Position numbers and translations under genes: made by a program. A stretch of 64,000 bases of DNA from positions 800,001 to 864,000 of the forward strand of contig OY970332.1 of NCBI GenBank assembly GCA_963717435.1, in the 5' to 3' direction. The notes under the pieces are model-generated. The model searched no databases, had not been told where the DNA came from, and saw only the letters and a program-made list of their open reading frames with translations. Below, piece after piece: positions 147 through 47,407 of this stretch (position 1 is its first letter; every line of letters starts with the position of its first letter). The stretch comes from an uncultured bacterium. Its GTDB lineage: Bacteria > Babelota > Babeliae > Babelales > Babelaceae.

Positions 147-233
147 ATCCCTCGATACACCCAGGCTACGCTAAAGCTTCCGACTTCGCCAAGGCTTCGA
201 CGGACGCGACGCCGGGCACTCGGGACGAGCGGG
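147..233 (-). repeat. Palindromic element (type A) with two small hairpin modules (type B) nested inside
   Basis: ATCCCTCGATAC...CACTCGGGACGAGCGG is the reverse complement of the element ends; interior holds GGCTACGCTAAAGCTTC and CCGACTTCGCCAAGGCTTCGACGG. Confidence 0.9.
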
Positions 234-5226: not shown

Positions 5227-5328
5227 TTAAAACACTTCTAATTAAAAAAATTGATAAATTTAAGAAAAAGTTGATACTAGAGTAAATTTATTTTTGCTTG
5301 TTTCTAATAATTAATTCGGGAGAAGTTT

Positions 5329-6624
5329 GTGTTTTTGTTATTATTTTTTTCACTAATTAGCACTTTTTGTCAAAATTTAATTAGCGCAAATCCGGATATA
5401 TATAACTATCCCGGAGGCAATGGGAATTTGGGTTTTGGCGGGTATTATAATACAAGTTTTAAAACTGGAAATCTGTTGGCATATAGAATAGGTACAGATC
5501 AAGGTAGCTTTATTTATCTGACACGTTTTTCCAATGGCTCTGCGCAAAATGTATTACAGGTTCCGGGTAGTAATCTTGGTTATGACGGCCCATACAACTG
5601 GTGGAAAATTAGAGATGACGGAAAACTTTTTGCGTGTAACATGCTACAAGATAATTCGATTGCTGTTTTTGAAACCAGTCAGGGCAAGCAAATTATAAAT
5701 TTGCCGTCATACCAAAATAACTACAATTCTTATTTGCATTTTGATAAAACTGGACGATATATTTACAGCTTGGTTGGCAACGATTTTTATGATAGTAGCA
5801 TAACAGGCGGTGTGATATGGGATCTTAAGCAGCAAAATCTTCCCAGATATTTTAAGTACCAAGATTCGCCCTATGTTCAGAATACAAAATACTGGAGAGT
5901 GATGCCCAAGTTTGTCAAAGCACCGGATGGCTCCTCAAGATTATTAACGTGCTATCAAAACTTGATCTATATTTACAACTGTGAAACTGGCGCTGTGATT
6001 TCTGCCACTCAAGTTGACGGAATTATTTATGAGCTATCTTATGACACACAAAATAATCGTATTCTTGTTGCTTTAAGTAAACCAGATACTGCTGAATATT
6101 TTCCAGAAATACAAGACTGGTGGGGTCAAGATAAATTTAGAATTTTAAGCTTCGATATAGATTTAAAGTCGCAAAAAATTTTATCGGGTTGGAGCGTTCA
6201 GTGCAAAGGGATATGCTTTGGTGAAGATGGAAGCCGATTGGCTGTAAAATTTGCAGGAGCTGATCCGGTTAAATCTCCGGGCCTTATTAATTTATATAAA
6301 ATAGACGGCGACAAAATTATTGACGGGCCGATTTTATATCATCCGGGCCCGTATAAGAATTATGGTGATCGCCCATATGAAGCGTTAATGTTCAAATTTA
6401 ATGAATCTGGAAGTAGATTAATTTCCAATACCAACTTTTGGTATAATGTCACGCTTGAATCACAAACTGTAATATTATGGGAGACAGGCACCGGTCAAGT
6501 TATACAAAAGATAACACATGGCGACTTTGGTGCCGACTTTGAAGATGTCTGTTACTCAGAAGATGAATTCGGAGGATCGATAGTGCTTATGGGCTATTTT
6601 CAATTTGGCGTATGGGATATATAA
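5329..6624 (+). CDS. Secreted WD40-like beta-propeller protein (copy 1)
   Basis: Signal peptide; repeated blades ending in VFET/IWDL/IYNC/LWET/VWDI. Confidence 0.8.
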   Translation: MFLLLFFSLISTFCQNLISANPDIYNYPGGNGNLGFGGYYNTSFKTGNLLAYRIGTDQGSFIYLTRFSNGSAQNVLQVPGSNLGYDGPYNWWKIRDDGKLFACNMLQDNSIAVFETSQGKQIINLPSYQNNYNSYLHFDKTGRYIYSLVGNDFYDSSITGGVIWDLKQQNLPRYFKYQDSPYVQNTKYWRVMPKFVKAPDGSSRLLTCYQNLIYIYNCETGAVISATQVDGIIYELSYDTQNNRILVALSKPDTAEYFPEIQDWWGQDKFRILSFDIDLKSQKILSGWSVQCKGICFGEDGSRLAVKFAGADPVKSPGLINLYKIDGDKIIDGPILYHPGPYKNYGDRPYEALMFKFNESGSRLISNTNFWYNVTLESQTVILWETGTGQVIQKITHGDFGADFEDVCYSEDEFGGSIVLMGYFQFGVWDI

Positions 6625-6652
6625 AATTTGTTAATTAATTCAGGAGCGAATT

Positions 6653-7982
6653 ATGGTTTTCTTATTACTTTTTTCACTAATTACTGTTTTTTGCCAAAAT
6701 TTAATTTCCAAAGAAACCCCGCTTAAATATTCTCAAGTTAACGCAAATCCGGATATATATGACTATCCTGGAGGCAAAGGGAATAGTTTTTTTGGCGGCT
6801 ATTATACGTCAAGTTTCAAAACTGGAAACCTTTTGGCCTATAGAGTGGGGACAGATAAAGGTGGCTTTATTTATTTGACACGTTTTGCCAATGGCTCTGC
6901 GCAAAATGTATTGCAGGTTCCGGCTAGTAATCTTTCTTATAACGGCGAATATAACTGGTGGAAAATTAGAGATGACGGAGCTCTTTTTGCCAGCAACATG
7001 TTACAAGATAATTCGATTAGTGTTTTTGAAACTGGTCAGGGCAAGCAGATTTTAAATTTTCCGTCATACGAAAATAGCTGCAATTCTTATTTGCATTTTG
7101 ATAAAACTGGGCGATATATTTACAGCTTGGTTCAAAAACTTTTACGATAGTTACATATATGGTGGGGTGATATGGGATCTTCAGCAACAAAACCCTCCCA
7201 GATATTTTAAGTACCAAGATTCGCCCTATGTTCAGAATACAAAATACTGGAGAGTGATGCCCAAATTCATCGAAGCACCGGATGGCTCTCCAAGATTATT
7301 AACATGCTATCAGAACTTGATCTATATTTACAACTGTGAAACTGGCCTAACAATTTCTGCTACTCAAGTTGACGGAATTGTTTATGGATTATCTTATGAC
7401 ACACAAAATAATCGTATTCTTGTTGCTTTAAGTAAACCAGATACTGCTGAATATTTTCCAGAAATACAAGACTGGTGGGGTCAAGATAAATTTAGAATTT
7501 TAAGCTTCGATATAGATTTAAAGTCGCAAAAAATTTTATCGGGTTGGAGCGTTCAGTGCAAAGGGATATGCTTTGGTGAAGATGGAAGCCGATTGGCTGT
7601 AAAATTCGAAGGGGACGATCTAATTAAATCTCCGGGCATTATTAATTTATATAAAATAGACGGCGACAAAATTAGTGATGGGCCGATTTTATATCATCCG
7701 GGACCGTATAATAATTATATTGAGTTGGAATACCAAGCACTAATTTTCAAATTTAATGAATCCGGAAGTAGATTAATTTCCAACAGCAACTTTGAGTATG
7801 CCCCATGGATGAATCGGGACCAAACTGTGATGTTATGGGAGACAGATACCGGTCAAGTTATAGAAAATATAACACATGGCGACTTTGGTTATGACTTTAA
7901 TGACGTCTGTTATTCGGAAGATGAATTTGGGGGATCGATAGTTCTTATGGGCTATGAAAACTTTGGTGTATGGGATATATAA
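6653..7982 (+). pseudogene. Secreted beta-propeller paralog (copy 2) split by a frameshift near 7133-7143
   Basis: ORFs 6653..7150 and 7098..7982 together align end to end with copy 1; 7 nt (CAAAAAC) replace 9 nt (GGCAACGAT). Confidence 0.8.
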
Positions 7983-8070
7983 AATTTATTTGTAATTTTG
8001 TTGTTTTGCTTAGCGAAAAAAATAATACTTGCTGGTTTGTTTATTGCTATTACTAAATCGGGAGAGAGTT

Positions 8071-9507
8071 ATGTTCTTGCCGTTATTATTTTTACTAGTT
8101 AATAGTTTATATTCTATGGAGCTACCGGAACAGGCGGCGCAGGATAAGTTGGAGAAGTTCTCAGTGGCAGTTTTGCCATCAAAAGTTAAAAGCTTAAAAA
8201 AGTGCGCAAGTGAAGCTGTCATGCGCGATCTTTTTTCCACTGTTAAAAGAAAAGAAAGACAAGAAAAAATAAATAAAATTATGCCAGATCTTTTTGAGAG
8301 TTTGCTTGATGCCCTTCCCGAGGCGATAAATATTAATCTGCTTCCAAGACTTTGGTATTGGTCAAGATCAAGGCCGGCAACCCTGAAAATCGGCCCGCAT
8401 GACAAAAACGTGATACTTAGCCCTTGTGGGAATTATATATGTTACCGTGAAGATTCTGTATTTAAAGAATTGGTTGTAATAAATCGCAAGGGAAAAAAAG
8501 TTTTATCCGAAATTCTGATACATCCATGGCAAATATCAAGTTTCGCCTTCAGCCCATGCGGCAAATATTTGGCCGTTGCGCAGGGCAACCGGGTTGATAT
8601 TTATGATATTGAGACCCCATTTAACACCGTAAAATTTATCCATAAAGATAATTCTGGTTTTATAGTTAATTGCTGCTGGAGTCCCTGTGGTAAATATATA
8701 CTGACTATGTTTTGCCCAAATAGAAATACGGTATATTATGATAAGCCGCTGGTTTTGTGGGATCTGGAATCTGGAGATACCAAATATTTTAAACATAACG
8801 GCGTACCCAATCTTATATGCTTTAGTCGAGAAGAAAAATATTTGCTCACACATGTTCAAGGCAAAATATTGTTTTGGGATATGAAAACTGGTAATAATAT
8901 TTTTCAACTACCAGTTTATGGTCAAATAAAAACCTTTTTTTTAAGTTCAGATAATAAATATCTTGTTCTGTTGACCAACTTTTCTCCAGCACTTTATGGC
9001 CTCAACAGATCCGAAATATTACTTTATGATACTCAAGATTTTAAGCAGCCCCCATCGGTTTTCAGATCTTTTGATAAACAAATACATAGTGGTTCGGTTC
9101 GCGAAAATTCGGATCAGTTATTTATTAAATTTGAAGGCTCTCCAAGTGAGCTTCTTTTATTGAATTTAAATGGCAACATGTCGACTATTAAGCACGAAAA
9201 GGATGCAGGTTTTTTTCCAAGCAGATCGGGAAGATTACTGATTATCGCAAAAAATAATAAGGCGACCATATGGGACTGTGCATCTGGAAAAAGATGTTTT
9301 TCTCTAAAATTTAAATATCCGATTAACAATATTAATTTTGATTTTGACGGCACCATACTTTTGTCGACAGATCGGAGTATATCGCTTATCCCCACCCCTG
9401 AGGCTTTTTTAAGTAAAAAAGGGCTGATTGAGCCTGGCGGATTAGAAAAGTTTTTGAACGATTATTGTCGTCGCAAGCCCCAAAATACTGGCAAAAAGTT
9501 GGATTAA
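8071..9507 (+). CDS. Secreted WD40-repeat protein
   Basis: Repeated SPCGKY/LWD/FWD/IWD blades; signal peptide ending LYS-ME; ATG at 8071 after GGAGAG. Confidence 0.85.
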   Translation: MFLPLLFLLVNSLYSMELPEQAAQDKLEKFSVAVLPSKVKSLKKCASEAVMRDLFSTVKRKERQEKINKIMPDLFESLLDALPEAININLLPRLWYWSRSRPATLKIGPHDKNVILSPCGNYICYREDSVFKELVVINRKGKKVLSEILIHPWQISSFAFSPCGKYLAVAQGNRVDIYDIETPFNTVKFIHKDNSGFIVNCCWSPCGKYILTMFCPNRNTVYYDKPLVLWDLESGDTKYFKHNGVPNLICFSREEKYLLTHVQGKILFWDMKTGNNIFQLPVYGQIKTFFLSSDNKYLVLLTNFSPALYGLNRSEILLYDTQDFKQPPSVFRSFDKQIHSGSVRENSDQLFIKFEGSPSELLLLNLNGNMSTIKHEKDAGFFPSRSGRLLIIAKNNKATIWDCASGKRCFSLKFKYPINNINFDFDGTILLSTDRSISLIPTPEAFLSKKGLIEPGGLEKFLNDYCRRKPQNTGKKLD

Positions 9508-10333: not shown

Positions 10334-10464
10334 AAATTAATTTTTTATGGTTCGATACACCCGTCACCTGATCCCGCGCTCGCCCTGAGTGTTTTTCGAA
10401 CGTAGTGAGAAAAATGTATCGAAGGGTGCCGGGCACTCACCACGAGCGGGTAAAAAATTAATTT
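10334..10464. repeat. Composite nested palindromic element, copy 1
   Basis: 14-bp inverted flanks 10334-10347/10451-10464; outer type A (-) 10347-10449 encloses inner type A (+) 10377-10427. Confidence 0.92.
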
Positions 10465-10473
10465 TCGTGAACC

Positions 10474-11214
10474 CTAGTCTAGAAGCAGCTTGTTAACTAC
10501 ATCGTTGGTGGCTATCAAAATTGCAATAACTAATATTGTTAGTATTGAGTAGGTGGCCACCATGCATTTTAGCACACGCGCGTCTTTTTTGTTCTTTATC
10601 TCTAAGCTATTTATCTTGTCTTCTATTCTTGTTAATGTATTGCGCAGGTTTTCGGGTGATTCCATTAACTCAAGTTTAGGGTTACCTTTTTCGGGGTCAT
10701 ATTCTGGCCCATAGTTTAATATTTTTCTTGAAAGAACTTCCGTTCTTAGCTCATTAATGTTTGTCATAATGTGCCTGAATATATGTAAAAAAAGTACCCT
10801 TAAAGTTTCGTCTTTGTTGAGTATCTCGTTAAGTTCTGTGATTTTTAGCTCAAGAAACTTTTTTTGTTTGGCTTTCAGCTCACGTGCTTTTGCCCTATCA
10901 TAAATGTCATTGGGATTATTATTATTATTATCTTGATTACTTTGCGCTTTTAAATTTGCATTACTTCCGACCATAACATAGTTATGATTTACTTGCTCCT
11001 GAGATCTCCTTGGACCAAAATCTTCATTATAAAGTTCTGCCATTTTTTCCAATATTTTATTTTCATTGGCAGGATTATTGTGTTGTAACACTTCAACAAG
11101 ATTTGTTTCCGTATTTTTATGCGTATTACTGTTATAGCTGTTGTTGTTATTTTCCATTGATAATAGTGTCACAAAATTTATAAAAAAAATTATATAAAAA
11201 TTTTTAATACACAT
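10474..11214 (-). CDS. Hypothetical secreted protein, Asn-rich, coiled coil, C-terminal TM helix
   Basis: Signal peptide ending LLS-ME; hydrophobic C-terminal segment. Confidence 0.75.
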   Translation of the reverse strand: MCIKNFYIIFFINFVTLLSMENNNNSYNSNTHKNTETNLVEVLQHNNPANENKILEKMAELYNEDFGPRRSQEQVNHNYVMVGSNANLKAQSNQDNNNNNPNDIYDRAKARELKAKQKKFLELKITELNEILNKDETLRVLFLHIFRHIMTNINELRTEVLSRKILNYGPEYDPEKGNPKLELMESPENLRNTLTRIEDKINSLEIKNKKDARVLKCMVATYSILTILVIAILIATNDVVNKLLLD

Positions 11215-11427
11215 TTTAGTTTCGCCCCAATTTTATAACCAACTTTCTCCCAATAACAGTTTTATACTTTTAGCTTACAAATTTTTATTATTAATAAAGA
11301 AGAACTTTGTAACAAAAATTTACAAGTTCAAGATTGACAGGTTTCTGATATTAAAATAGAACTATCCAGGTCGACCAAATTAAAATCGACAAAATAAAAT
11401 CAACTTAAAAAAATTAAGAGTAGTACT

Positions 11428-13263
11428 ATGAGTATCAAAACAAGTATAAAAACATTTTTCAGTTTCCAGCTATTATTGATCTTCCCCAATTATATATTTG
11501 CACGTGAAATGCGAACCCCGTTAGATTTGCGTATCGGGCCAATACATTATCCGGTTTGGAACAAAGAAAGATATGAGAGCTGCTGTTTTGATTTAGACCT
11601 ATGGGCAGGGGGATATAACCGTGTTGCAAGTAATGGATATGACAAGCATGGCTGGCGGTGCCAGGTCCCACTTTCAACAATACAGTTTAATTTGCCAGTT
11701 TTTACCATGGCGCAAACGTTCCAGAATAATACCGTTTCAGCTTATTCACAAAATCCATGGATATCTGTTTCGACCATAAACCCCAATTTTACTTACAAAG
11801 AAAAAGGTATAATGGCCGGCCTAATTATTGGAACCCGTCCAGGAGCCTGCGGAAATTTTAGAATCGGTATGCGTGCCAGAATCCCATATAGGGTTGTTGA
11901 TGCCCAACGTGTGGACTCAGATTCTTGTTGTCCACTTGAAGGTGAAACTCTAAAAGATGTGCGTAGATTGGGCAACGACTTAATACCTGCAATTGACCCT
12001 TCAACCGGGGCTGCTGAAGCTGAGCCACTAAATGGCAGCTTTGCTTATAGATTCGATTTTGTAAGCGCGCTTCTTATAAATTACCCTAATGGAACCCCTG
12101 AAATAAATTTTAAAAATACTGATGTGCTAAGTCATATTACCGCCGCAAATAATACAGTTTCTCCGGTAGTTTTTGAAGATATAACCGACGCTGGTGTTGT
12201 CAATTCAACCCAACCAATAGAGGGCAATCCAGTTAATTTTATAGTTCGCGATAATGGCACGGCACCTGAACACCCATACGCAGCATTTGCCTCGACAACT
12301 TACGGCGCTTATCCTGGCCAGGGCGTTGATCAGCAACCATTTTTAAATGGCGACGGAACTGGCGGCGTAAATAACGGACGTGTAAGAATGAGCCAAAACA
12401 ACGACTACACTGTTCTTGGAAACACGACATCTGCCCAAGCAAGACTTTGGATGGTTCCAACTGCCTACATAGATAATACAAATGTTGCGCATGTTGGTGA
12501 TACTGCACAAGCAATTGCAAATACTATAGAGCAGATAATACCTGGGATTGACCCTTCTATTTTAACTTTTTTCTATCAAAATAATCTCGATTTTTCATCA
12601 CAAAATAATAAGGGTGTTGGCGACTTGGACACAGAATATTACGTCGCTTACGATTTTGATGAAAGATTTTGGGGTGAATTAAATTTTGGGATAATTTTCC
12701 CAACTGCACGACAAATAAAAGAGCCTAAGAAAATATTTCTTTTTGCTCTGGGCAATAACGGCCATATGGAACTTAGATTGGGAACACAGGGCGGTTATGA
12801 TGTTTTCGATTGGTTCAAGTTTGATTTCGATGCCTATTATTCTTTTGTGCTAAATAGAACAGAGCCGATACTTGCATCTTTTATGGGGGCCAGTGTAAAA
12901 AATCTTGGGCCGCAAGTTGATGCAAAGATCCATTGGGGATATTTTTGGGGCCATGTGAATTTTACTTTTTTGGAACCATGCTCAAAATATGTTGGGTTTA
13001 ATTTGGGCTACGAACTTTATGCAAAGCAAAGGGACAAAATCTGTTTTTGTCGTTCTACTATGCCAGATTATCTGGGCAATTATGCAACCCTTAACCCATA
13101 TCTCGCGGCAGAAAGAACAAACGTGACTGCGCAAAAAGTTAGAGTCGAAGTTTTCTCCGATACCAGACTTTTTGATATTTATGGCGGTTGGTCAAAAGTT
13201 TTTGCGGGCAAGAACGCCATGGATGAGATTGAATGGTACCTGGGCTTTGGGCTAAAATTTTAA
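11428..13263 (+). CDS. Putative outer-membrane beta-barrel surface protein
   Basis: Signal peptide; alternating aromatic strands; C-terminus WYLGFGLKF fits a beta-signal; central N/G/T-rich insertion. Confidence 0.7.
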   Translation: MSIKTSIKTFFSFQLLLIFPNYIFAREMRTPLDLRIGPIHYPVWNKERYESCCFDLDLWAGGYNRVASNGYDKHGWRCQVPLSTIQFNLPVFTMAQTFQNNTVSAYSQNPWISVSTINPNFTYKEKGIMAGLIIGTRPGACGNFRIGMRARIPYRVVDAQRVDSDSCCPLEGETLKDVRRLGNDLIPAIDPSTGAAEAEPLNGSFAYRFDFVSALLINYPNGTPEINFKNTDVLSHITAANNTVSPVVFEDITDAGVVNSTQPIEGNPVNFIVRDNGTAPEHPYAAFASTTYGAYPGQGVDQQPFLNGDGTGGVNNGRVRMSQNNDYTVLGNTTSAQARLWMVPTAYIDNTNVAHVGDTAQAIANTIEQIIPGIDPSILTFFYQNNLDFSSQNNKGVGDLDTEYYVAYDFDERFWGELNFGIIFPTARQIKEPKKIFLFALGNNGHMELRLGTQGGYDVFDWFKFDFDAYYSFVLNRTEPILASFMGASVKNLGPQVDAKIHWGYFWGHVNFTFLEPCSKYVGFNLGYELYAKQRDKICFCRSTMPDYLGNYATLNPYLAAERTNVTAQKVRVEVFSDTRLFDIYGGWSKVFAGKNAMDEIEWYLGFGLKF

Positions 13264-13356
13264 AAGTAATTGAGCTTGAGTTTTTGGGCAGTTAATTTAC
13301 AATCAATATAAAACTTTATAAAACTTTTTTTTTATTTAACCCTGAATTTTGAAATC

Positions 13357-15300
13357 ATGCCTGAAAAAAATAAATTTTACGTTACAACCCCAATATATTA
13401 CGTCACGGCCAAACCCCATTTGGGATCGCTATACTCAACATTGCTTGCAGATGTTGCTGCAAGATGGGCAAAACTGTCTGGCAAAAAAACTTTCTTTTTA
13501 ACAGGTACTGATGAGCATGGGCAGAAGGTTGCTGCTGCTGCAGAAAAAGCGGGTAAATCACCTAAAGAGTTTGTGGATAGTTTTATACCAAGTTATAAAA
13601 AAATCTGGCAAGAATATGGCATAAATTATAACCATTTTATAAGAACAACAGATCCGGAGCATATCAGTGCGGTTCAAAAATGGATCGCAGATTTGCTCAA
13701 AAAAGACGAAATATATAAATCTGTTTATCGTGGTTGGTATTGCGTATCTGATGAGACTTTCGTCGCAGAGATTCATGATAGCGTGACGCCGCAAGAAGCG
13801 CCGCTATGTCCGTCTTGCCAACGAAAAACTATCGAAGTTTCTGAAGATTCTTATTTTTTTAGACTTTCAAAATATCAAGATAAATTATTAGAGTTTTACA
13901 AAAACAATCCTGATTTTATTACTCCAAAAGAGAGACTTAACGAGGTTATAAGTTTTGTTAAAGAGGGTCTTAAAGACCTAAGTATTTCTCGAACAACAGT
14001 TAAGTGGGGGATCCCATTTCCGGGTGATCCTGAGCACACTGTATACGTTTGGGCCGATGCCCTTAACAATTATATAACTGCTATAGGTTACGGTCAGCCA
14101 CATAGAAAAGACGAATTTGAATTTTTTTGGCCAGCAGATCTGCATGTCTTGGGTAAAGATATAGTCAGATTTCATGCCGTATTTTGGCCAGCCTTTTTGA
14201 TGGCCGCAGATCTTGCGATGCCCAAGAAATTGTTGGTTCATGGCTGGATCAAAGTTGGCGAGCAAAAAATGTCCAAATCTTTGGGCAACGCTATAGATCC
14301 TGAAGAGATTTTCAAAAAATATGGCCCTGATCCAGTGAGATATTATTTAACCAGACATATGGCCATAACCCAAGATTCTGAATTTTCAATACCTGACTTG
14401 GAACAAAAAGTAAGTTCTGAACTTGCAAATGATTTAGGGAACTTGCTCAATAGAACCTCGGCTTTGGCGCAGAAAAATAATTTAGAATATATAAATAGCC
14501 CGCGCATCTGGTCGGTCGATTCTTTGGAACTTAGAAATCAGTTTTGGGACGTTTTGGAGCAGTTTGAACTTGATATGCAGGACTGCTTTTATAACAGGGC
14601 GCTAAATAATCTTTGGAGATATATTAATCTGGTTAACGCATATTTTCACAAGCATGAGCCCTGGAAATTGGCAAAATCTAATCCAGAATTATTTCATGAG
14701 GTTATGGCTGCAACATGTAACAGTTTGCACTGTATAGCGATATTACTGCTTCCGGTTATGCCCCATAAGATGGAAGATCTGCTTGAGTCTATTGGCATAG
14801 AATTAGATTTTAATAAAAATATAATTGCTCAACTTGAAGATGATAATTGGGAAAAGCAGTTTAAGATTACCCCAATTGCGCCGCTTTTTGAAAAAATTGA
14901 ACTTAAAGAAGAGAATTTAAATTCTGGGAATAAGATGCAAGAAAATATCGAAAATAAAGAAACTTTAAAAAATTATATAACTATAGACGACTTTTTAAAA
15001 GTTGAGTTGCTTGTTGGTACTATAAAACAGTGCGAAGAAATTGCGGGCTCGGATAAGCTGCTTAAACTTCAAGTAGACTTTGGGCCATCTGGGATAAAGC
15101 AAATATTATCGGGCATTAAAAAGTCTTTCGCGCCTGAAGATTTAATTAACAAACAAGCTGTATTTGTGTTTAATCTTGCACCTCGAACAATGATGAAACT
15201 TGAATCCAACGGCATGTTGTTAACAGCGGGAACTCCTGATGGAAAACTGTCTTTGGTATCACCTGCAGTTATGGTTGAAAACGGAACAAGATTAAAATAA
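13357..15300 (+). CDS. metG: Methionine--tRNA ligase with C-terminal tRNA-binding OB domain
   Basis: FYVTTPIYY, HLG, GTDEHG, YVWADAL, KMSKS; C-terminal ITIDDFLKVELLVG domain. Confidence 0.97.
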   Translation: MPEKNKFYVTTPIYYVTAKPHLGSLYSTLLADVAARWAKLSGKKTFFLTGTDEHGQKVAAAAEKAGKSPKEFVDSFIPSYKKIWQEYGINYNHFIRTTDPEHISAVQKWIADLLKKDEIYKSVYRGWYCVSDETFVAEIHDSVTPQEAPLCPSCQRKTIEVSEDSYFFRLSKYQDKLLEFYKNNPDFITPKERLNEVISFVKEGLKDLSISRTTVKWGIPFPGDPEHTVYVWADALNNYITAIGYGQPHRKDEFEFFWPADLHVLGKDIVRFHAVFWPAFLMAADLAMPKKLLVHGWIKVGEQKMSKSLGNAIDPEEIFKKYGPDPVRYYLTRHMAITQDSEFSIPDLEQKVSSELANDLGNLLNRTSALAQKNNLEYINSPRIWSVDSLELRNQFWDVLEQFELDMQDCFYNRALNNLWRYINLVNAYFHKHEPWKLAKSNPELFHEVMAATCNSLHCIAILLLPVMPHKMEDLLESIGIELDFNKNIIAQLEDDNWEKQFKITPIAPLFEKIELKEENLNSGNKMQENIENKETLKNYITIDDFLKVELLVGTIKQCEEIAGSDKLLKLQVDFGPSGIKQILSGIKKSFAPEDLINKQAVFVFNLAPRTMMKLESNGMLLTAGTPDGKLSLVSPAVMVENGTRLK

Positions 15301-15308
15301 CTTTAGAA

Positions 15309-15438
15309 AAATTAATTTTTTATGGTTCGATACACCCGTCACCCAATCCCGCGCTCGCCCTGAGTGTTCTTCGAAGCTTGGCGAAGAAGAATGTATCGAA
15401 GGGTGCCGGGCACTCACCACGAGCGGGTAAAAAATTAA
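15309..15438. repeat. Composite nested palindromic element, copy 2
   Basis: Near-identical to 10334-10464; outer type A (-) 15322-15426, inner type A (+) 15352-15404, different innermost hairpin. Confidence 0.92.
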
Positions 15439-15458
15439 AATACTTTTAGAAAAAATTT

Positions 15459-17537
15459 GTGATTTTAAATAAAATTTATAACAAATTTAAGATTATTGGA
15501 TTAAAGCGAACGTGTGAGCTTGTAAAAAACAAGTTTGCCAGTTCGCTTTTTTTGTTCTTAAACAGAAGACGGGCAAAAATAACCCGTTATATGGGCAAAA
15601 CTGCAAATTACAGTTGGCCGGAAGTCTCGAGTAAATTAAAATTTGATAAAGATTTTGAAAAATTCTGGGAAAATTTTTGCAACAAAAAATCTTATATTAA
15701 TTTTAATAATTTTTTAGAAACTTTAATAACTGATTATAATCTTGATAATCAGGCAAGCATCCCAGATAAAAACTGTGTTAAACTTCTTCAAGAATTCTCT
15801 TCCCCGCTCGTCCCGAGTGTTCTTCGTAGCTTTAGCGTAGAAGAATGTATCGAGGGATCGAGTAAACCCAAGTGGCACTATGATCTTAACGGGTTTTATT
15901 TTGACGCAAATATTTTTTATAAAGACATAAAAATACAAGCTAATATTGGGGAAAATATCGGGCCGGATATCAGAACACTGTGGGAAAAAAACAGATTTAA
16001 TAATATTTTTTTTCTGGGCATAAATAATTCACCGGACAAATTTTTCAGTGACATAAAAGACTGGATAGATAAGAACCCATATTTATATGGGCCCAATTGG
16101 GTTTGCCCGATGGAAGTAGGAATCAGGTCGGTTAACTGGGTTTTGGGCTTTATGTTTTTTAAAGACATAAAATTTGGTGAGCCAAAACAGAAATTTGAGT
16201 TTTGGGAAAAATTTATCTGCTCACTTTATGACCACATGATTTTTATAGAACAAAATTGGGAAATTTATGATACACGAACAAATAACCATTATTTGTCAGA
16301 TCTACTGGGGTATTATTACTTATTAATATTTTTTGATAGTTTAGGCGCAAAAAATTTAAAATCTAAAATTATTTGGGTAAAAAAAGAGTTTTTAAAAGAG
16401 CTTGATAAGCAGATATTACCCGACGGCTCTAGTTACGAGGGCTCGACGGCTTATCATAATTTAATTTGTGAAATAGTTTATTATTTTAAAATTTTAAGTG
16501 ATCAAGAAGAGTTAAAAAATAATTATAATAAATTACTCGACCAAAAATTTAAAAATATGTGCCAATTTGCAAGTTATTTTTATCTTCAGGACCCTAAAGT
16601 TAAAATACCGAAGCAACTTACGCCGCTCGTCCCGAGTGTTCTACGAAGCTCAAAGAGCGAAGTAGAATGTATCGAGGGATGGCGGGGGCAAAATTTTGTG
16701 ACAATAGGCGATAACGACTCGGGCAAAATTGTCGCGGGCCTGCCTGAAAAATTTTTTAAAGTTACTAAATTTGATAACTTGCCCGAAATTGCGCACTTTA
16801 AGGATTTTGGAGTATCTGTTTATAAATCACCGAATATACACATAACTTTGCGCCATCATGCATATAATAAATTACAACCAAGTGCTCATTTCCATAACGA
16901 TTTTTTAAGTATCACGTTAGCAATAAACAATATTCCGGTTATTATCGATCCTGGTTCTTATGTTTATACCGCTTCAAGTTATTGGCGAAATTATTTTCGC
17001 AGCGCTGAATCCCATAATGGGTTTTATATTAAAAATTTAGAACCTGTCAAACTCGATAATTACAATCTTTTTGCTCCCGATATTCCCGAAAAAATTCTAG
17101 AAAATAATAGTCTAAAAAATAATAATGGCATTAAAAAATCGATAGTGTCTAGTCACGAGCTTTATAAAAATCTGGGCCTAAGAGCGGCAAGAAAAATTGA
17201 ATTAGAAAATTTAAATAAAAATATAATTGTCACAGATTCCTGGGATAGTATTTGGGAGAATATTAATAAAACAAACTTAGAAAATCTTGAGAATCTTACA
17301 ACTGTCTGGAGCTTGATTTTGCACCCAGATATTAAAGCAATAAAGCGGACAGATAAGTCTTGGGATCTTTTTTACAACAATATTAAACTTGCGAACATAA
17401 GCTCCAAAGATCTTGATTTTGAAGCAGATTCCTCATGGGCAAGTTTTGTTTATGGCGAAAAAATCGCTGCAACCAGATTAGCCGCGCAAAGCAGCTTGAA
17501 ATTAAAAAATTATGGCTGGCAGATAACTATTTTTTAA
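15459..17537 (+). CDS. Heparinase II/III (alginate-lyase-like) family protein carrying two in-frame palindromic inserts
   Basis: WH.D, WEKNRF, NW.CPMEVGIRS.NW, NNHYLSDLLG, DGSSYEGSTAYH, IGDNDSG, H.HND.LS, IDPGSYVY, FRS..SHN. Confidence 0.88.
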   Translation: MILNKIYNKFKIIGLKRTCELVKNKFASSLFLFLNRRRAKITRYMGKTANYSWPEVSSKLKFDKDFEKFWENFCNKKSYINFNNFLETLITDYNLDNQASIPDKNCVKLLQEFSSPLVPSVLRSFSVEECIEGSSKPKWHYDLNGFYFDANIFYKDIKIQANIGENIGPDIRTLWEKNRFNNIFFLGINNSPDKFFSDIKDWIDKNPYLYGPNWVCPMEVGIRSVNWVLGFMFFKDIKFGEPKQKFEFWEKFICSLYDHMIFIEQNWEIYDTRTNNHYLSDLLGYYYLLIFFDSLGAKNLKSKIIWVKKEFLKELDKQILPDGSSYEGSTAYHNLICEIVYYFKILSDQEELKNNYNKLLDQKFKNMCQFASYFYLQDPKVKIPKQLTPLVPSVLRSSKSEVECIEGWRGQNFVTIGDNDSGKIVAGLPEKFFKVTKFDNLPEIAHFKDFGVSVYKSPNIHITLRHHAYNKLQPSAHFHNDFLSITLAINNIPVIIDPGSYVYTASSYWRNYFRSAESHNGFYIKNLEPVKLDNYNLFAPDIPEKILENNSLKNNNGIKKSIVSSHELYKNLGLRAARKIELENLNKNIIVTDSWDSIWENINKTNLENLENLTTVWSLILHPDIKAIKRTDKSWDLFYNNIKLANISSKDLDFEADSSWASFVYGEKIAATRLAAQSSLKLKNYGWQITIF
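15804..15858 (+). repeat. Type A palindromic element, intragenic and in-frame (PLVPSVLRSFSVEECIEG)
   Basis: CCGCTCGTCCCGAGTG-TTCTTCGTAGCTTTAGCGTAGAAGAA-TGTATCGAGGGAT. Confidence 0.95.
16623..16680 (+). repeat. Type A palindromic element, intragenic and in-frame (PLVPSVLRSSKSEVECIEG)
   Basis: CCGCTCGTCCCGAGTG-TTCTACGAAGCTCAAAGAGCGAAGTAGAA-TGTATCGAGGGAT. Confidence 0.95.
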
Positions 17538-27853: not shown

Positions 27854-27904
27854 GCCGCTCGCCCCGAGTGAAATTCCGTAGGAATTTAGTATCGAGGGGT
27901 CGGC
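27854..27904 (+). repeat. Type A palindromic element downstream of gatA
   Basis: GCCGCTCGCCCCGAGTG-AAATTCCGTAGGAATTT-AGTATCGAGGGGTCGGC. Confidence 0.9.
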
Positions 27905-30579: not shown

Positions 30580-30634
30580 CCGCTCGTCCCGAGTGTTTTT
30601 CGTAGCGCAAGCGAAGAAAAACGTATCGAGGGAT
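30580..30634 (+). repeat. Type A palindromic element (left member of inverted doublet)
   Basis: CCGCTCGTCCCGAGTG-TTTTTCGTAGCGCAAGCGAAGAAAAA-CGTATCGAGGGAT. Confidence 0.92.
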
Positions 30635-30694: not shown

Positions 30695-30748
30695 ATCCCT
30701 CGATACAATCACCTTCACTACGTTTCGGTGATCACTCGGGACGAGCGG
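30695..30748 (-). repeat. Type A palindromic element (right member of inverted doublet)
   Basis: ATCCCTCGATACA-ATCACCTTCACTACGTTTCGGTGAT-CACTCGGGACGAGCGG. Confidence 0.92.
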
Positions 30749-40604: not shown

Positions 40605-41282
40605 TCAATAAATAATTATTGAACCAATCTTTCTATTGTGTAAATCATATTTATTATTGAGAAGATTAAATAACAGCGGCCAAGGTTTATGATAAATTTC
40701 ACCAATATATTCTGCATCAAAAATTTCATTGCTCGCGAGCATAAAAGCTAATTCCATAATAAGATAAGAAGAAGCTATTCCGCATGCTTTTTCAAGATCA
40801 ATTGTTTTTTTGATTCGATCTTTCAAAATTGATTTGACTGCTTCATTAACGTCTTCATAAAATTCATTATTGGTCACATAGAGGTTGTTTAAATACTGTT
40901 TTTGTTGTTGATATGCTGGGTTGTTTTCTATATCACATTCCCAGTTAATTATCTTTATGTGTTGCGTATTTTGACTCGCGTTTAAGAGATCAATACTATA
41001 ACTACAACGATTATACAGATTTTTTCCTTTTGATAGCGCTTCTTTTTTGGCTTGCTGGGTGGTATAACCTAATGCTTCAAACGTGGAAATAGTAGGATAG
41101 TCTGGAATTACTATAATAATCCGTGCAAATAAGGGACCAGTCACTGTGAGTAATTCTACTATTTTTTCCCTGGTAAAGTAGCTATTATTAAGGCTCATGC
41201 CAATAACAACAGTCCCTTTATTTTCCAGAATGCGATAGCCAATTGTATATGATTTACCTATCAAATCTCTTTTAATTTCCAA
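40605..41282 (-). CDS. tRNA-dependent cyclodipeptide synthase (NYH-type)
   Basis: IGMSLNNSYF (GxSxxNxYF), ALGY, YLIMEL (YxxxE), IYHKPWP; 225 aa. Confidence 0.88.
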   Translation of the reverse strand: MEIKRDLIGKSYTIGYRILENKGTVVIGMSLNNSYFTREKIVELLTVTGPLFARIIIVIPDYPTISTFEALGYTTQQAKKEALSKGKNLYNRCSYSIDLLNASQNTQHIKIINWECDIENNPAYQQQKQYLNNLYVTNNEFYEDVNEAVKSILKDRIKKTIDLEKACGIASSYLIMELAFMLASNEIFDAEYIGEIYHKPWPLLFNLLNNKYDLHNRKIGSIIIY

Positions 41283-41594
41283 ATTACCCCCAAATTTTGG
41301 CCAAAATTGCCATAATTCCTAATCTTTTTTAGGCTTTGCACCTAGAAAATGTAATAAAAATATTCTTATAACTAATATATGTTTTCTAATTGGCATTATT
41401 TATTTTACCGATATCTTGAATATTGTAAAGACTAAAATGGCGAATATCTGAGGTATAGGAATTCCAATTCAGTATCACCTTGGCGGCAAAAAAACTTCCA
41501 AATACTACGTTTGTAGAGTAAACTAGATAAAAAATATTGACTATCCGATCAAATATTGTTTTTTGTAACAAAAGAAAGAACTATAAGAATAAAC

Positions 41595-42293
41595 ATGAAC
41601 TATTTTAAAATTTTCTCGATTCTAATTTTATTTACACTGTTTTTGAATAATGATTATTCCATGGAGATTGAGAAGTCAAAGTTGGATGAGGAATTTATAT
41701 CTGATTTGAAGCTGCCCTTAGATCAAGAAGATCCATTAAATCTTGAAAATTTGAAAAGTGATTTAAAATTAGGTTCCAACCCTAATCTAATTACTAAAGG
41801 AACATTTGGCTCGAATCTTACTATATTAGATATAGCAGTATCAGATTTAAGAAATTTGGAACTAGTAAAATTATTGTTAAAATCTGGAGCTAATCCTAAT
41901 CTTATTTCTCCCTCCAAAAAATTTACTCCTTTAGATAATGCTTTATATAAAATGCTTACATATGTAAATCAAGATATTTTTGAAGTCTCTAATCAAGATA
42001 TAGTAGCAAATATGAATAATCTGATTGATATAGCTACTGTTTTATTGGAGCATAGTGCGAACCCCAGGATTAGCCAATATAAAACTTATTCTGCTATGAT
42101 ATTTGCAGATCCAGCTAAAGTAGCCAGAAGCTTTTATGATAATGGAATGTGGGATAGCTTTGAACTTCTGGATAAAGTCGTGAACCGATTAGAAGATCTC
42201 ATGAAAGATGAGCACCTTGAGGTTCTAAAGTATTTAGAATTTAAATCTAAACTAGACAATCTGGAAAAATTAATGTTAGAAGCTACTAAATAG
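41595..42293 (+). CDS. Secreted ankyrin-repeat protein
   Basis: LELVKLLLKSGANPN, TPLDNAL, LLEHSANP; signal ending DYS-ME. Confidence 0.85.
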   Translation: MNYFKIFSILILFTLFLNNDYSMEIEKSKLDEEFISDLKLPLDQEDPLNLENLKSDLKLGSNPNLITKGTFGSNLTILDIAVSDLRNLELVKLLLKSGANPNLISPSKKFTPLDNALYKMLTYVNQDIFEVSNQDIVANMNNLIDIATVLLEHSANPRISQYKTYSAMIFADPAKVARSFYDNGMWDSFELLDKVVNRLEDLMKDEHLEVLKYLEFKSKLDNLEKLMLEATK

Positions 42294-42360
42294 AATAAAA
42301 GATTTATCACATTAAAAATCTATCTTAAAGTACAGCGCCCCTAATTTAAAAGGGATAATT

Positions 42361-43386
42361 ATGAAAATATTAAAAAAAACACTTTCTTTGTTGTTTGCGT
42401 TTGCCATATTAATGACAATAGTTTTTATTAATCTTTATCTAAATAAAATTAGTTTTAATCCAATCTCAGAAGATGCACAGAAAAATTCTTTCCTTATTTT
42501 GTTTGCCATTTTATTTATTGTTTTTTTATTAAAAGATTTTCGCAAGCATATTTCTTTATATAACAAGCAAAGAAGAAGTTTATCTGAACGCCGCCTCTCA
42601 TCCATGATTTATGTCGGGAAAGCATGGGTGATATCATCTTTGTTATCAATTATAATTTTTAGTGTTTTTATTGGTCTTTTTAAATTATTTATCTCTTTCA
42701 CTACAGGATGCGATAATAATGTTGGTTCAAGAAAACAAGAAGCAATAACTCTAGTACATAAAGAAATAAAAGAAGAAACTCCAAGTTTGGATCTTAACTG
42801 CCAATATCCTGAATTTGAAAATGGCCCCGAAGAATTGAATGAGCAAATTAAAAAATACATAGATGATAATGTTACATCGGCTAGGGAAGGTGCTAAGGAA
42901 ATTTATCAAGAATATCAAGATGAGATAGCCTCAGACCCCGACCCGTATTTAATTCGTTGCAATGATGGAGGATCTTCGCTTGAAATTGATTATAAAATCA
43001 TACAGTTAAACAAAGAATATATCAGCTTAAGGTTTTTTAGTATTTTTTGTTGCTCTGGCGCAGCCCATCCGGCAACGGAATGGAAAAGTTTTAACTATGA
43101 CCTCAAAAAGAAAAAATTCTTCACGCTTCGAGAATTTTTTAATGATGATTCCTCTTTTTTATTTAAGCTTTGCGATCTTTGCAAGAAAGAAGTAAGAAAG
43201 GCGGGCAATTCAAGCTATACAGATGAATTCGAAAGAGATGGTACCATAATGGGATGGGATACTATTGATAGTGGTTGGAAAAAATTTGAAGCATTTACGC
43301 TTACAGATGACGTAATTAATTTATACTTTGACTGGGGAGCTTGGCATGGTGTTGAATTTGTTCTATTGCGTAAAGATATAATATAA
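42361..43386 (+). CDS. Membrane protein with PdaC/RsiV-like (DUF4163/DUF3298) domain
   Basis: Three N-terminal TM helices; YP......LN..I, YISL.F, GAAHP, SFNYDL...L..FF. Confidence 0.75.
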   Translation: MKILKKTLSLLFAFAILMTIVFINLYLNKISFNPISEDAQKNSFLILFAILFIVFLLKDFRKHISLYNKQRRSLSERRLSSMIYVGKAWVISSLLSIIIFSVFIGLFKLFISFTTGCDNNVGSRKQEAITLVHKEIKEETPSLDLNCQYPEFENGPEELNEQIKKYIDDNVTSAREGAKEIYQEYQDEIASDPDPYLIRCNDGGSSLEIDYKIIQLNKEYISLRFFSIFCCSGAAHPATEWKSFNYDLKKKKFFTLREFFNDDSSFLFKLCDLCKKEVRKAGNSSYTDEFERDGTIMGWDTIDSGWKKFEAFTLTDDVINLYFDWGAWHGVEFVLLRKDII

Positions 43387-43414
43387 GAAGATCTAATTTA
43401 AGGGATTAATTAAT

Positions 43415-43732
43415 ATGATAACTTTAAACAATCAAAATCTTGAACAGGTCGTAGAAAAATCTACAAAGCCAGTAATTATTGACGTTTTTGCCACTTGGTG
43501 CGGTCCCTGCAAATATATGGCCCCAATTCTTGATGAATTAGAAGAAGAACTTGGAGATAAATACACTTTTGCTAAGTTCAATGTTGAAGAGTCAAGAGAT
43601 TTGGCAATAAAATATGGAGTTACTTCATTTCCAACTTTTATTTTTATTAAAGATAATAAAGTAATAGGTAAAGTTATTGGTGCTAGGTCAAAAGAGGATT
43701 TTCAAGATAAAATTGAATTATACTTTGCGTAA
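43415..43732 (+). CDS. trxA: Thioredoxin
   Basis: ATWCGPCK, 105 aa. Confidence 0.93.
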   Translation: MITLNNQNLEQVVEKSTKPVIIDVFATWCGPCKYMAPILDELEEELGDKYTFAKFNVEESRDLAIKYGVTSFPTFIFIKDNKVIGKVIGARSKEDFQDKIELYFA

Positions 43733-43743
43733 AATTTAATTAG

Positions 43744-43761
43744 GGGAGAAAATTTTCTCCC
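43744..43761. terminator. Probable terminator hairpin between convergent genes
   Basis: GGGAGAA-AATT-TTCTCCC followed by a T-rich tract. Confidence 0.55.
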
Positions 43762-43762
43762 T

Positions 43763-44683
43763 TCAATTTTTTTTAGATGGAAAGAATCCTAATCCATTTA
43801 GAATAAGATCCAAATTTTGAATCGCTTGTAAGCTTCTTTTATAAAAGCTGATTTGGTCTGGATTAGTTATATTAAATTTTCTAAGAAACTCTTCTACGTT
43901 CGAGAATTTTATAACCAGCGTATGATAAAATAGTTTGAAATTAGGCGCGGATTTATTTGTTTCTACAATCTTTCCAGAATTGTACAGCTTTATACTCTCT
44001 TGAAATTCATCTATTAACTTTTGCATTAGTTTGGAATTTTTGATTTCAACATGTTTTTTTTCATATGCTTTAAGTTTTCTTTTGCTAAACGAATTCATGG
44101 GCGTATAGTATTCAATCGCCCAGATATTATAAATATCCCCCAATTTGTCAGCCATATTTATGATATCTTTTTGTTCTGACGTCAAATTGTCCAAAGTATA
44201 TAAGAAAACCGGGTGCAAGTCATAAGTCTTAAGAATAGCAAAGTAACCGTAATTGTTTATGGTTAGAGATTCTGCTGATATTATCAAATCTTTATCTCCA
44301 AGTAGACCCATGTTTTTTAACCTAATAAATTGATCTTTTGTATCTATTTCTAGATCTTTGAATAGTTGGTCTTTATCAGAAAGCTTATTTTTTAAAATAT
44401 TCGCAAAAGTTAATACAGGTTCAGATATCTTGATATTGATATTTAAAACTCTATTTTCTTTATAATTATTATATACAGCCAAGTCGCCTTCAAGTGCACA
44501 TTTAAGCTGCTTATAGTCATCAGAGTTCTTAAGAGTTTCTATATCGGAAGCATCAGCGGTCTTAAAGCACTTTAAAAAAGCTTTATAAGCCTTATCAGCC
44601 AATTCAGGCATCTTGCTATTATCCAAAGCAGAAATCGGTAAACTTAGGGCTATTGTTATAGCCAGAAACAGGTTGTTTTTCAT
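43763..44683 (-). CDS. Hypothetical secreted protein
   Basis: Signal peptide MKNNLFLAITIALSLPISA; helical, possibly two internal repeats. Confidence 0.7.
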   Translation of the reverse strand: MKNNLFLAITIALSLPISALDNSKMPELADKAYKAFLKCFKTADASDIETLKNSDDYKQLKCALEGDLAVYNNYKENRVLNINIKISEPVLTFANILKNKLSDKDQLFKDLEIDTKDQFIRLKNMGLLGDKDLIISAESLTINNYGYFAILKTYDLHPVFLYTLDNLTSEQKDIINMADKLGDIYNIWAIEYYTPMNSFSKRKLKAYEKKHVEIKNSKLMQKLIDEFQESIKLYNSGKIVETNKSAPNFKLFYHTLVIKFSNVEEFLRKFNITNPDQISFYKRSLQAIQNLDLILNGLGFFPSKKN

Positions 44684-44941
44684 ATTTTTCTCCACTTAAT
44701 TAAAATTACAGGTTAAATCAGGTTGATTTTCCTAAAAACCCCCTATCTTTAACTCTTATTATAATAGTACCAATATCTGTATTCTATGTAAAAAGCCCTC
44801 CAGTTTAGAAAGGTCACAGAGGATTAACAACAGGGAGATTCAGTCTCATATATATGAACCAGGACGGGCGGTTTTGTTTTTATGATTTTTTGGTAAAATT
44901 AATATTAATAGTTAAAATAGCCTAAAAATAGAGGTAAATTC

Positions 44942-46420: not shown

Positions 46421-46426
46421 AAAATA

Positions 46427-47407
46427 ATGAATTTTAACGAAGGTACAAAATTATTAATTTTATTTGTTTTAATTTTATTTATTGGAATTAAAATAAAAGA
46501 TTCTTTTAAATTTACTAGATGTACAACTTCTCACATTACTTCATCTTCTCCAATAATTACACTTAAAATATCAACTGACATTTCAAAAGAAAGTGTAATT
46601 AAGCTTTTCAAACAAGGATTTAATGTCAATGCTATATACGATGGTGGAACGACATTATTATATCAAGCAGTTGGTCAAAATGATTTAGAATTAGTTAAGT
46701 TTTTAATTAATAATGGTGCGGGTGTAAATATGCCTTGTGCTGATGGATCAACTCCTTTAGCAGGCAGTGCATTTTGGGGATATTATAAAATTTGTGAGCT
46801 ATTATTAGAAAATCAAGCAGAGGTTGACAAAAGACCATCTACTGGCTCAACTCCTCTTTTAATAGCAGCTTCTTTGGGACATAAAGATATATGTGAGCTT
46901 TTATTAAAATATGGAGCTAACCCAAATGAAGGGGATAAAAATGGTGAGCCACCAATTATATCAGCCACAATTAAGGGCCATATAGATATATGTAAATTAT
47001 TAATAAAGTATAAAGCTGATATTAATAAATCATTACCCACAGGAGAGACCGCTTTATGGTTTGCTTGCTTATGCAGGCACAATGATATAGCTAAACTGTT
47101 AATAGAAAATGATATACATGTAAATAAAACGGGCAAAGATAATTCAACCCCTTTATTTGTAGCCGTTCAAACGGGCAATGAATATCTTTGTGATCTTTTA
47201 ATAAAGCATAAAGCAGATGTTAATAAGCCTATAAACAATGGACAAACACCTTTGCTTATGGCTGCTTACAAGGGTTATTATAATATTTGCAAAATGCTAT
47301 TAGAAGCCGGCGCCAATGTTAAAATGGGTTTTCAAGGTAAGCTACCAATTGACTATGCAAGAGAAAATAATCATTCAAAAATTGTTAAATTACTTAATAA
47401 TAGATAA
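46427..47407 (+). CDS. Ankyrin-repeat protein
   Basis: About 8 canonical G.TPL..A...G...IC.LLL..GA.VN repeats; N-terminal TM/signal. Confidence 0.93.
   Translation: MNFNEGTKLLILFVLILFIGIKIKDSFKFTRCTTSHITSSSPIITLKISTDISKESVIKLFKQGFNVNAIYDGGTTLLYQAVGQNDLELVKFLINNGAGVNMPCADGSTPLAGSAFWGYYKICELLLENQAEVDKRPSTGSTPLLIAASLGHKDICELLLKYGANPNEGDKNGEPPIISATIKGHIDICKLLIKYKADINKSLPTGETALWFACLCRHNDIAKLLIENDIHVNKTGKDNSTPLFVAVQTGNEYLCDLLIKHKADVNKPINNGQTPLLMAAYKGYYNICKMLLEAGANVKMGFQGKLPIDYARENNHSKIVKLLNNR

Follow-up and report, generated by a model that had tools for sequence, protein, structure and literature searches.

Two composite elements of about 130 bp, el1 and el2, lie in a 64,000-nt stretch of DNA from an uncultured member of the Babelaceae (contig OY970332.1 of GenBank assembly GCA_963717435.1, positions 800,001 to 864,000; hereafter the window), and they pose a simple question: how did two copies of one element come to be nearly identical in their outer sequence, the shell, and clearly different in their innermost hairpin, the core? 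Each composite is made of two copies of a small repeat, the type A unit, with one unit on the minus strand enclosing another on the plus strand. The explanation that we favour as a whole, with a confidence somewhat better than even, is that these are nested hairpin repeats that fold as single-stranded DNA (ssDNA), that they are served by a small nuclease resembling the Ssn enzymes, and that the composite was copied whole before the tip of its inner hairpin was overwritten.

Architecture of the composites

The type A unit is about 55 nt long and reads CCGCTCG-YCCY-GAGTG, then a variable hairpin (P2), then YGTATCGA-RGGR, often followed by T-N-GCGG. Its parts are an optional outer helix (CCGC/GCGG), a 4-bp helix P1 (YCCY/RGGR), P2, and a strictly conserved asymmetric internal loop with GAGTG on the 5′ side and YGTATCGA on the 3′ side; P2 is usually capped by a mini-hairpin of the C(GNA)G type. 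The original prediction of two such composites, each with AT-rich inverted flanks in common and with an outer minus-strand and an inner plus-strand type A unit, was borne out by alignment (MAFFT; repeat families D7 and D8), by pattern matches and by a covariance model of the unit. The two elements align across 128 nt, from AAATTAATTTTTTA to TAAAAAATTAA, and have the same layout:

10334-10464, strand given as ".": composite el1, nested minus-strand and plus-strand type A units
10334-10347 and 10451-10464: AT-rich inverted ends of el1
10348-10359 and 10434-10450, minus strand: arms of the outer unit of el1
10360-10368 and 10425-10433: outer P2 stem of el1, CCCGTCACC / GGTGCCGGG
10369-10372: junction of el1, TGAT
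10373-10427, plus strand: inner unit of el1, with its P2 hairpin at 10392-10414
15309-15438, strand given as ".": composite el2, laid out as el1
15309-15322 and 15428-15438: AT-rich ends of el2
15323-15334 and 15411-15427, minus strand: arms of the outer unit of el2
15335-15343 and 15402-15410: outer stem of el2
15344-15347: junction of el2, CAAT
15348-15404, plus strand: inner unit of el2, with its P2 hairpin at 15367-15391

Read from the 5′ side, an AT-rich end is followed by TGGTTCGATACA, the 9-nt stem strand CCCGTCACC, the 4-nt junction (TGAT or CAAT) and CCCGCGCTCGCCCTGAGTG; after the innermost hairpin come TGTATCGAAGG, GTGCCGGG, CACTCACCACGAGCGGG and the other AT-rich end, and GTGCCGGG together with the preceding G makes up the second outer stem strand, GGTGCCGGG. 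The ends common to both composites, AAATTAATTTTTTA and TAAAAAATTAA(TTT), are terminal inverted repeats of 14 nt and 11-14 nt. The outer unit (TGGTTCGATACA ... CACTCACCACGAGCGGG) has a flipped P1, TGGT/ACCA, and a whole plus-strand unit sits in its P2 loop; the arms of that inner unit (GCGCTCGCCCTGAGTG ... TGTATCGAAGGGT) are identical between el1 and el2 and belong to the P1 type CCCT/AGGG. As a result of this nesting, each DNA strand presents one complete unit in the smallest possible space.

DNA folding of the composites gave long hairpins on both strands (z = -2.6 to -3.8), and in these thermodynamic folds, as would happen in any inverted doublet, the outer arm takes the inner 5′ arm as its partner; folding as a unit competes with folding as a doublet. 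A search for target-site duplications, which the original prediction had proposed, found an imperfect direct repeat, CTTTAGAAAAA / CTTTTAGAAAAAA, bracketing el2 (15297-15310 and 15442-15457) and nothing similar around el1; the repeat may be a target-site duplication or a chance match in AT-rich DNA. A reading of the composites as intrinsic terminators was rejected by inspection: a T-run precedes and an A-run follows the hairpin on both strands.

Divergence of the cores

The shells differ at two of 105 compared positions (CCTGAT vs CCCAAT), as predicted, and both differences lie at the junction adjoining the inner unit. The innermost hairpins, TTTTTCGAACGTAGTGAGAAAAA and TTCTTCGAAGCTTGGCGAAGAAGAA (23 and 25 nt), match in 18 of 25 columns, the other seven being five substitutions and two one-base indels; one difference is a compensated stem pair, T-A to C-G. 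The contrast between core and shell is significant (Fisher p = 1.2e-4), and seven core changes compare with about 0.5 expected at the shell rate (Poisson 7e-7), in agreement with the prediction that the core has changed far faster than the shell. The further claim that the two cores are different modules needs to be qualified: the cores are alignable versions of one hairpin, with a 6-bp stem, a GAA-type internal loop and a mini-hairpin tip in common, and are not unrelated modules.

Where the differences could have come from is suggested by the other type A units of the window:

147-232, minus strand: unit with a 57-nt P2 carrying two tandem tip modules, just downstream of the gltX stop codon
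15804-15858, plus strand: unit inside a heparinase II/III-like gene, 54 nt in frame (PLVPSVLRSFSVEECIEG), missing in 12 homologues
16623-16680, plus strand: unit inside the same gene, 57 nt in frame (PLVPSVLRSSKSEVECIEG), missing in 12 homologues
27855-27900, plus strand: unit downstream of gatA, whose short P2 is AAATTCCGTAGGAATTT with the tip C(GTA)G
30580-30634, plus strand: left member of an ordinary inverted doublet, downstream of a deaminase gene
30695-30748, minus strand: right member of the inverted doublet, with an el1-like tip, downstream of tatD

The core of el1 has its stem in common with the unit at 30580, and its tip resembles that of the unit at 30695-30748; the core of el2 has its stem in common with the unit at 15804, 400 bp off, and its tip resembles that of the unit at 147-232. 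The hairpin of el2 is nearer to that of the unit at 15804 (22/26) than to that of el1 (18/25). One of the tandem tips of the unit at 147-232 is like the el2 tip, and the other is like the tip of the unit at 15804. From these comparisons, the hairpin stems and tips of the window appear to recombine in a mosaic way, tip modules spanning units with different stems.

A comparison of separate shell and core relationships had also been proposed, and it could be made in an assembly with the accession prefix CAVXAT, which holds four composite copies with a common shell (loci L044, L079, L052 and L098; we number loci of other genomes L001 onward). The cores of L044 and L052 are the same, that of L079 is off by two bases and that of L098 is unrelated; L052 and L098 have two arm insertions in common that are absent from L044 and L079. 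Shell history and core history disagree in this assembly. The sequences support a model in which the tip would be replaced by short-patch conversion or template switching via the identical GAGTG and TGTATCGA segments, and the targeted recombination at the hairpin tip of the original prediction is an inference.

As a separate observation, in L052, L098 and L006 (at about 340-520 of each) two more GC-rich hairpin modules are inserted in both outer-unit arms, between GGTTCGA and TACA and between CACTCACCAC and GAGCGGG. One of them contains CGAAGCCTTGGCGAAG, which is also found in the window unit at 147-232 and from which the el2 tip CGAAGCTTGGCGAAG differs by one base; these modules are possibly a second tiny mobile hairpin.

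A covarying two-helix unit

In the window, a pattern for the unit arms matched 10 times vs 0.02 expected, and a gapped pattern matched seven times vs 0.00 expected; these numbers are so far above expectation that chance is excluded. The inner units of el1 and el2 were matched at 10376-10427 and 15351-15404, and the outer ones, on the minus strand, at 10434-10449 and 15411-15426. A covariance model was built from 74 distinct units of other genomes and run on the window with filters off. It recovered seven units at 52-56 bits, among them the inner units of el1 and el2 (55.5 and 54.1 bits), as well as the long-core unit at 147-232 and, at a weak 10.3 and 10.0 bits (E about 1), the outer units of the two composites, with nothing else convincing; the low scores of the outer units reflect a flipped 4-bp helix and the interruption of each by its inner unit. 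Searching with a generalised short-form pattern added no units in the window, and this pattern misses units with TCGA in P2, el1 and el2 included.

Both helices are supported by covariation. Among the 74 units the outer pair of P1 is C-G in 46, U-A in 24 and U-G in four, and the inner pair is U-A in 64 and C-G in 10, with no mismatch at either; the 3′-side third-position letter was not fixed by the search pattern, so the covariation of the outer pair is a real test. P2 covaries at six of seven pairs in the same alignment. Paired cells amount to 95.4% vs 72.5% in shuffles, the observed covariation was reached by none of 500 shuffles, and controls with slid partners were 35-59% paired. Doubly compensated variants of P1 occur as TGGT/ACCA in the outer units of el1 and el2 and as TGCT/AGCA in L022 and L044, and short forms of the unit from Sphingomonas have GGCT/AGCC; since P1 has changed on both strands in several units, it is the helix that is kept and not its sequence.

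The hairpin tips point to DNA. Triloops cap 58 of 97 distinct simple P2 hairpins. On the unit strand 33 of these triloops read GNA, most of them with a closing C-G pair; the complement, C(TTC)G, was found once and GNRA tetraloops four times. The sequence d(C-GNA-G) is a classic, very stable DNA mini-hairpin, and its presence on the unit strand argues for folding of one particular DNA strand.

Known RNA families gave little. With Rfam 15, the whole window at gathering score yielded only a tRNA, and el1 and five loci searched at permissive E-values yielded only chance matches or long-hairpin miRNA look-alikes. Hammerhead, twister, kink-turn and tRNA-like readings were set aside: their defining core sequences are absent from the units as read.

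Distribution, nesting and mobility of the family

A scan of species genomes (185,579) with the gapped pattern found at least 108 loci in at least 37 assemblies, assemblies being counted by accession prefix. Among the matches listed, most carry the label Dependentiae, Babeliales or TM6, or are metagenome-assembled genomes without a label; other labels among them are Dehalococcoidia, Myxococcota, Nevskia, Solimonas, Gallionella, Sphingopyxis and Pseudomonadota, and some of these latter loci lie on contigs of 1.8-3.7 Mb with GC-rich flanks. A blastn search of plasmids with a unit gave no match.

An opposite-strand partner within about 100 nt was found at 52 of 100 loci among the matches listed (hand count, covariance model). 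The spacers of these doublets are not conserved, so the single unit, and not the doublet, looks like the conserved entity; P2 types are often conserved. Units also nest in the P2 loop of other units, both in the same orientation (L005, L077, L097, L033 and L004) and, as in the window, in opposite orientation (L044, L079, L052, L098, L006, L069, L022 and others). L044, L079 and L069 have TGGT/ACCA outer arms, like the window composites, next to outer stems and flanks that are quite different; the recurrence of nesting with different stems and flanks makes it a feature of the family and not an accident of the window genome.

In six of these loci (L044, L079, L052, L098, L006 and L022) the composite is part of a larger element that has inverted termini of its own, ATACCATTC ... 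GAATGGTAT; in L022 and L044 the composite of that larger element adjoins a gene for a GIY-YIG nuclease.

The heparinase II/III-like gene of the window (15591-17537) contains two units in the same frame, of 18 and 19 codons, and both stretches are missing in 12 of 12 aligned Dependentiae homologues. These in-frame insertions are evidence that the units move.

A nuclease gene beside the units

At some loci, type A units flank a nuclease gene. A tblastn search found the gene, or a decayed copy, in six of 108 loci from four assemblies, among the matches listed. Intact open reading frames (ORFs) of 95-97 aa lie between or beside units in L044 (97 aa, between units), L071, L022 and L059, and all four encode single-domain GIY-YIG proteins (PF01541, E 4e-20 to 8.5e-16); the copy in L019 has two stops, and L003 retains a 21-aa N-terminal remnant in a doublet spacer. 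A search of NCBIfam with the nuclease gave nothing useful. By our own estimate, the association of nuclease and units in loci of about 800 nt is far beyond chance.

A relative on a Sphingomonas parapaucimobilis plasmid (locus L109) is 61.7% identical, and with it the proteins range from 95 to 106 aa. Within 5.2 kb of it lie five short-form units, CGTTCR-P1-GAGCGAAGTCGA-P1′, four with P1 GGCT/AGCC and one with CCCT/AGGG. Upstream of this GIY-YIG gene, at L109 2364-2448, a 28-nt perfect inverted repeat with a 31-nt spacer is made up of two short-form units; a further unit, at 2781-2800, falls within the 3′ end of the gene.

Comparison with known repeat systems

The closest described system is that of SsnA and its repeats (Chenal et al. 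2025, Nat Commun, PMC11893778). SsnA, a GIY-YIG protein of 94 aa, binds one strand only of the NTS hairpin repeat, and this strand only in ssDNA form; it cuts a few bases upstream and is inactive on RNA and dsDNA; its gene is typically flanked by repeats, a layout that the authors compare with that of REP/RAYT. According to the authors, the Ssn enzymes are the first site-specific ssDNA endonucleases described. The known sites of these enzymes are simple hairpins. Type A resembles this system in consisting of many short hairpin repeats with conserved, oriented, non-palindromic flanks (hundreds in PMC11893778); in repeats that flank a gene, about 95 aa long, for a single-domain GIY-YIG protein, on the type A side in related loci only; and in its enrichment in host-associated bacteria. 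There is also a partial echo in sequence: TC-R-T-CCCG ... GGGAT in the window units vs TCATTCCCG ... GGGAATC in NTS, with TCATCCCG ... GGGATC as the counterpart in a Wolbachia oligonucleotide. The type A unit is, however, about twice as long as the published repeat, has an internal loop that is asymmetric and conserved as well as a second hairpin, which varies, and occurs nested and in frame in genes. The published table lists the one Dependentiae genome looked up there, Babela massiliensis, with 0 SRM and no ssnA, and Sphingomonas parapaucimobilis with a cd10448 homologue and an SRM enrichment of 0.76-fold (PMC11893778); such a homologue without SRM enrichment is expected if its nuclease serves a different repeat.

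Repetitive extragenic palindromic (REP) sequences, with the related BIME and REPIN, are short imperfect palindromes, mostly intergenic and usually in inverted pairs, that form mosaic clusters and whose enzyme gene is single-copy and flanked by the repeats. Inverted doublets are likewise common among type A units, the window pair at 30580 (+) and 30695 (-) included. In contrast to REP, type A has no 5′ GTAG head, its arms are conserved across phyla whereas REP sequences are lineage-specific, and the gene flanked by its units encodes a GIY-YIG nuclease and not a Y1 transposase; no Y1 (RAYT) transposase was found among the 62 ORFs of the window. Rickettsia palindromic elements, reported by Ogata et al. 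in 2000, are said to be small palindromic repeats of an intracellular bacterium that lie in frame in genes and are translated. Type A resembles them in its in-frame insertion into a protein-coding gene, missing in homologues; it differs in host phylum and presumably in sequence, and its units are about half as long.

The original prediction had described the composite as a unit like a miniature inverted-repeat transposable element (MITE). Part of this stands: the composite is short and non-coding, has inverted ends and was copied whole (128 nt with two shell differences, non-conserved stem and ends included), the same nested architecture occurs in several copies in another assembly, and the L003 doublet with a nuclease remnant between its units is like an internally deleted element. 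The MITE is nonetheless the wrong frame, because the units belong to a REP/BIME-like or Ssn-like family with a GIY-YIG nuclease and not a transposase; the possible target-site duplication is imperfect and confined to el2, and the related gene encodes a nuclease without known integration activity. A search of published full texts for strings derived from the units matched only an unrelated primer; no description of palindromic repeats in Dependentiae was found in the texts searched, and two Dependentiae genome papers, whose supplements were not searched, contain none of the repeat-related words sought.

Proposed mechanism and alternative explanations

The mechanism of copying and tip change that we infer leans on the related loci and on the published Ssn/NTS system. 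El1 and el2 would be copies of one and the same nested inverted doublet, formed by a small repeat with an ssDNA fold. A small single-domain GIY-YIG nuclease, encoded elsewhere in the genome, would bind the unit where it has folded on one strand of DNA that is transiently single-stranded, and nick beside it. Between units with common arms, such nicks, or stalling of replication at the hairpins, may drive copying as well as template switching or short-patch gene conversion. The whole 128-nt composite would have been copied recently, and the P2 tip of the inner unit would then have been overwritten from other units.

Several observations weigh against this account. The window contains no GIY-YIG gene by tblastn or by Pfam search of its 62 ORFs, and the nearest solved structures to the unit-flanked nucleases are UPF0213 proteins (PDB). 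The SRM motif HGTCWY..RNCYNB has no match in the window, one in 86,791 bases of the 108 loci and none in L109, so that type A is not the described Ssn repeat. G-T and A-C mismatches in P2 stems (13 vs 8) show no strand bias. No exact donor of either core is present within the window, and the frequent conservation of P2 types in other genomes, where spacers differ, means that P2 is not generally hypervariable. Nine of the 10 window units are sense to the adjacent gene (p = 0.02), which would also fit a role at the RNA level. Finally, five substitutions and two indels suffice to join the two cores, so that plain fast mutation could account for them. The original prediction had named such stepwise linkage, together with the existence of these two copies only, as what would refute it: the cores can indeed be linked, and the window holds only two copies.

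Exchange would not be needed if the shell were young and the innermost hairpin mutated faster by slippage, exposed-loop damage and compensatory stem changes. The match in 18 of 25 columns agrees with this, and the compensated stem pair and the two single-base indels resemble stepwise hairpin change; we nevertheless consider it rather unlikely, given the excess of core changes over the shell rate, the resemblance of the tips to tips of units with different stems, and the conservation of P2 elsewhere in places where the neighbouring spacer is not conserved. Alternatively, different plus-strand units could have been inserted independently into the P2 loops of two empty copies of the outer unit, the loop being a preferred target. 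Nesting in P2 loops recurs in both orientations (same-orientation loci as above; L022, L044, L069 and others for the opposite one), in L042 a unit of the TGGT/ACCA type, with a simple P2, stands alone, and the only two shell differences both adjoin the inner unit. Yet the inner arms are identical in el1 and el2 and are of a P1 type seen in none of the six solitary window units, and the arm pattern and covariance model found no empty shell (an outer unit without an inner one) in the window, which makes independent insertion improbable.

The units might instead be structured RNA elements selected in transcripts, for 3′-end stability, processing or protein binding, with the composite serving convergent transcripts. 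Beyond the sense orientation of nine units, most window units begin within 60 nt of a stop codon, the covariation is strong, the internal loop is conserved, and the closing pair is G-U in 48 of 74 units and G-C in 24. Against an RNA role stand the lack of Rfam matches at gathering or permissive thresholds, the prevalence of GNA triloops (33) over GNRA tetraloops (only four), the units lying in frame inside a coding gene, and the outer unit of el2, which is antisense to both neighbouring genes. Moreover, the units flank a nuclease gene of a family reported to act on ssDNA and not on RNA (PMC11893778), and a crude test showed no clear orientation bias to genes in the loci among the matches listed (31 sense, 23 antisense and 68 ambiguous, of 137 upstream flanks). 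We hold this reading to be quite improbable, and we retain whole copying followed by tip overwriting as the account of el1 and el2.

Other features of the window

For proteins encoded in the window, the closest matches are those of Babeliales and Dependentiae, with an identity of about 40%. Three further features were noted:

5308-8124: a tandem array of three paralogous ORFs (period about 1355 nt; repeat families D1-D4), whose repeat segments are 61-89% identical, with no Pfam or NCBIfam match
40605-41282, minus strand: a homologue of cyclodipeptide synthase (PF16715, E 2.4e-30), in a genome that is small and host-dependent, adjoining several ankyrin-repeat genes (41556-47407)
62348-63038, minus strand: overlapping HEPN and nucleotidyltransferase ORFs, a pairing that we take to be typical of a toxin-antitoxin-like module

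Implications

The repeat family is more interesting than the composites that led to it, given its two-helix design across phyla, its in-frame insertions and its association with a nuclease outside the published motif. In its widest form, which we put forward tentatively and as somewhat less probable than not, our proposal is that type A is an undescribed cross-phylum class of "aptamer-like" ssDNA repeats serviced by an Ssn-like nuclease; that nicking makes the units self-propagating and drives tip exchange; and that the composite is an evolved two-strands-in-one site. If this is true, self-propagating units colonise intergenic DNA, each other's hairpin loops and, in frame, coding genes.

A second and more elaborate class of sites, built of a covarying helix, an internal loop that does not vary and a hairpin that can be exchanged freely, would add to the recognition repertoire known for the Ssn enzymes. 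It would also account for genomes in which the nuclease is present but the published motif is not enriched. For the Dependentiae, which are known almost only from metagenomes, an abundant repeat has been identified. It breaks into genes in frame and makes annotation and assembly harder, and recombination hot spots may lie where it occurs. The nested copies, whose tip changes fast, also provide a concrete case for short-patch exchange between dispersed hairpin repeats.

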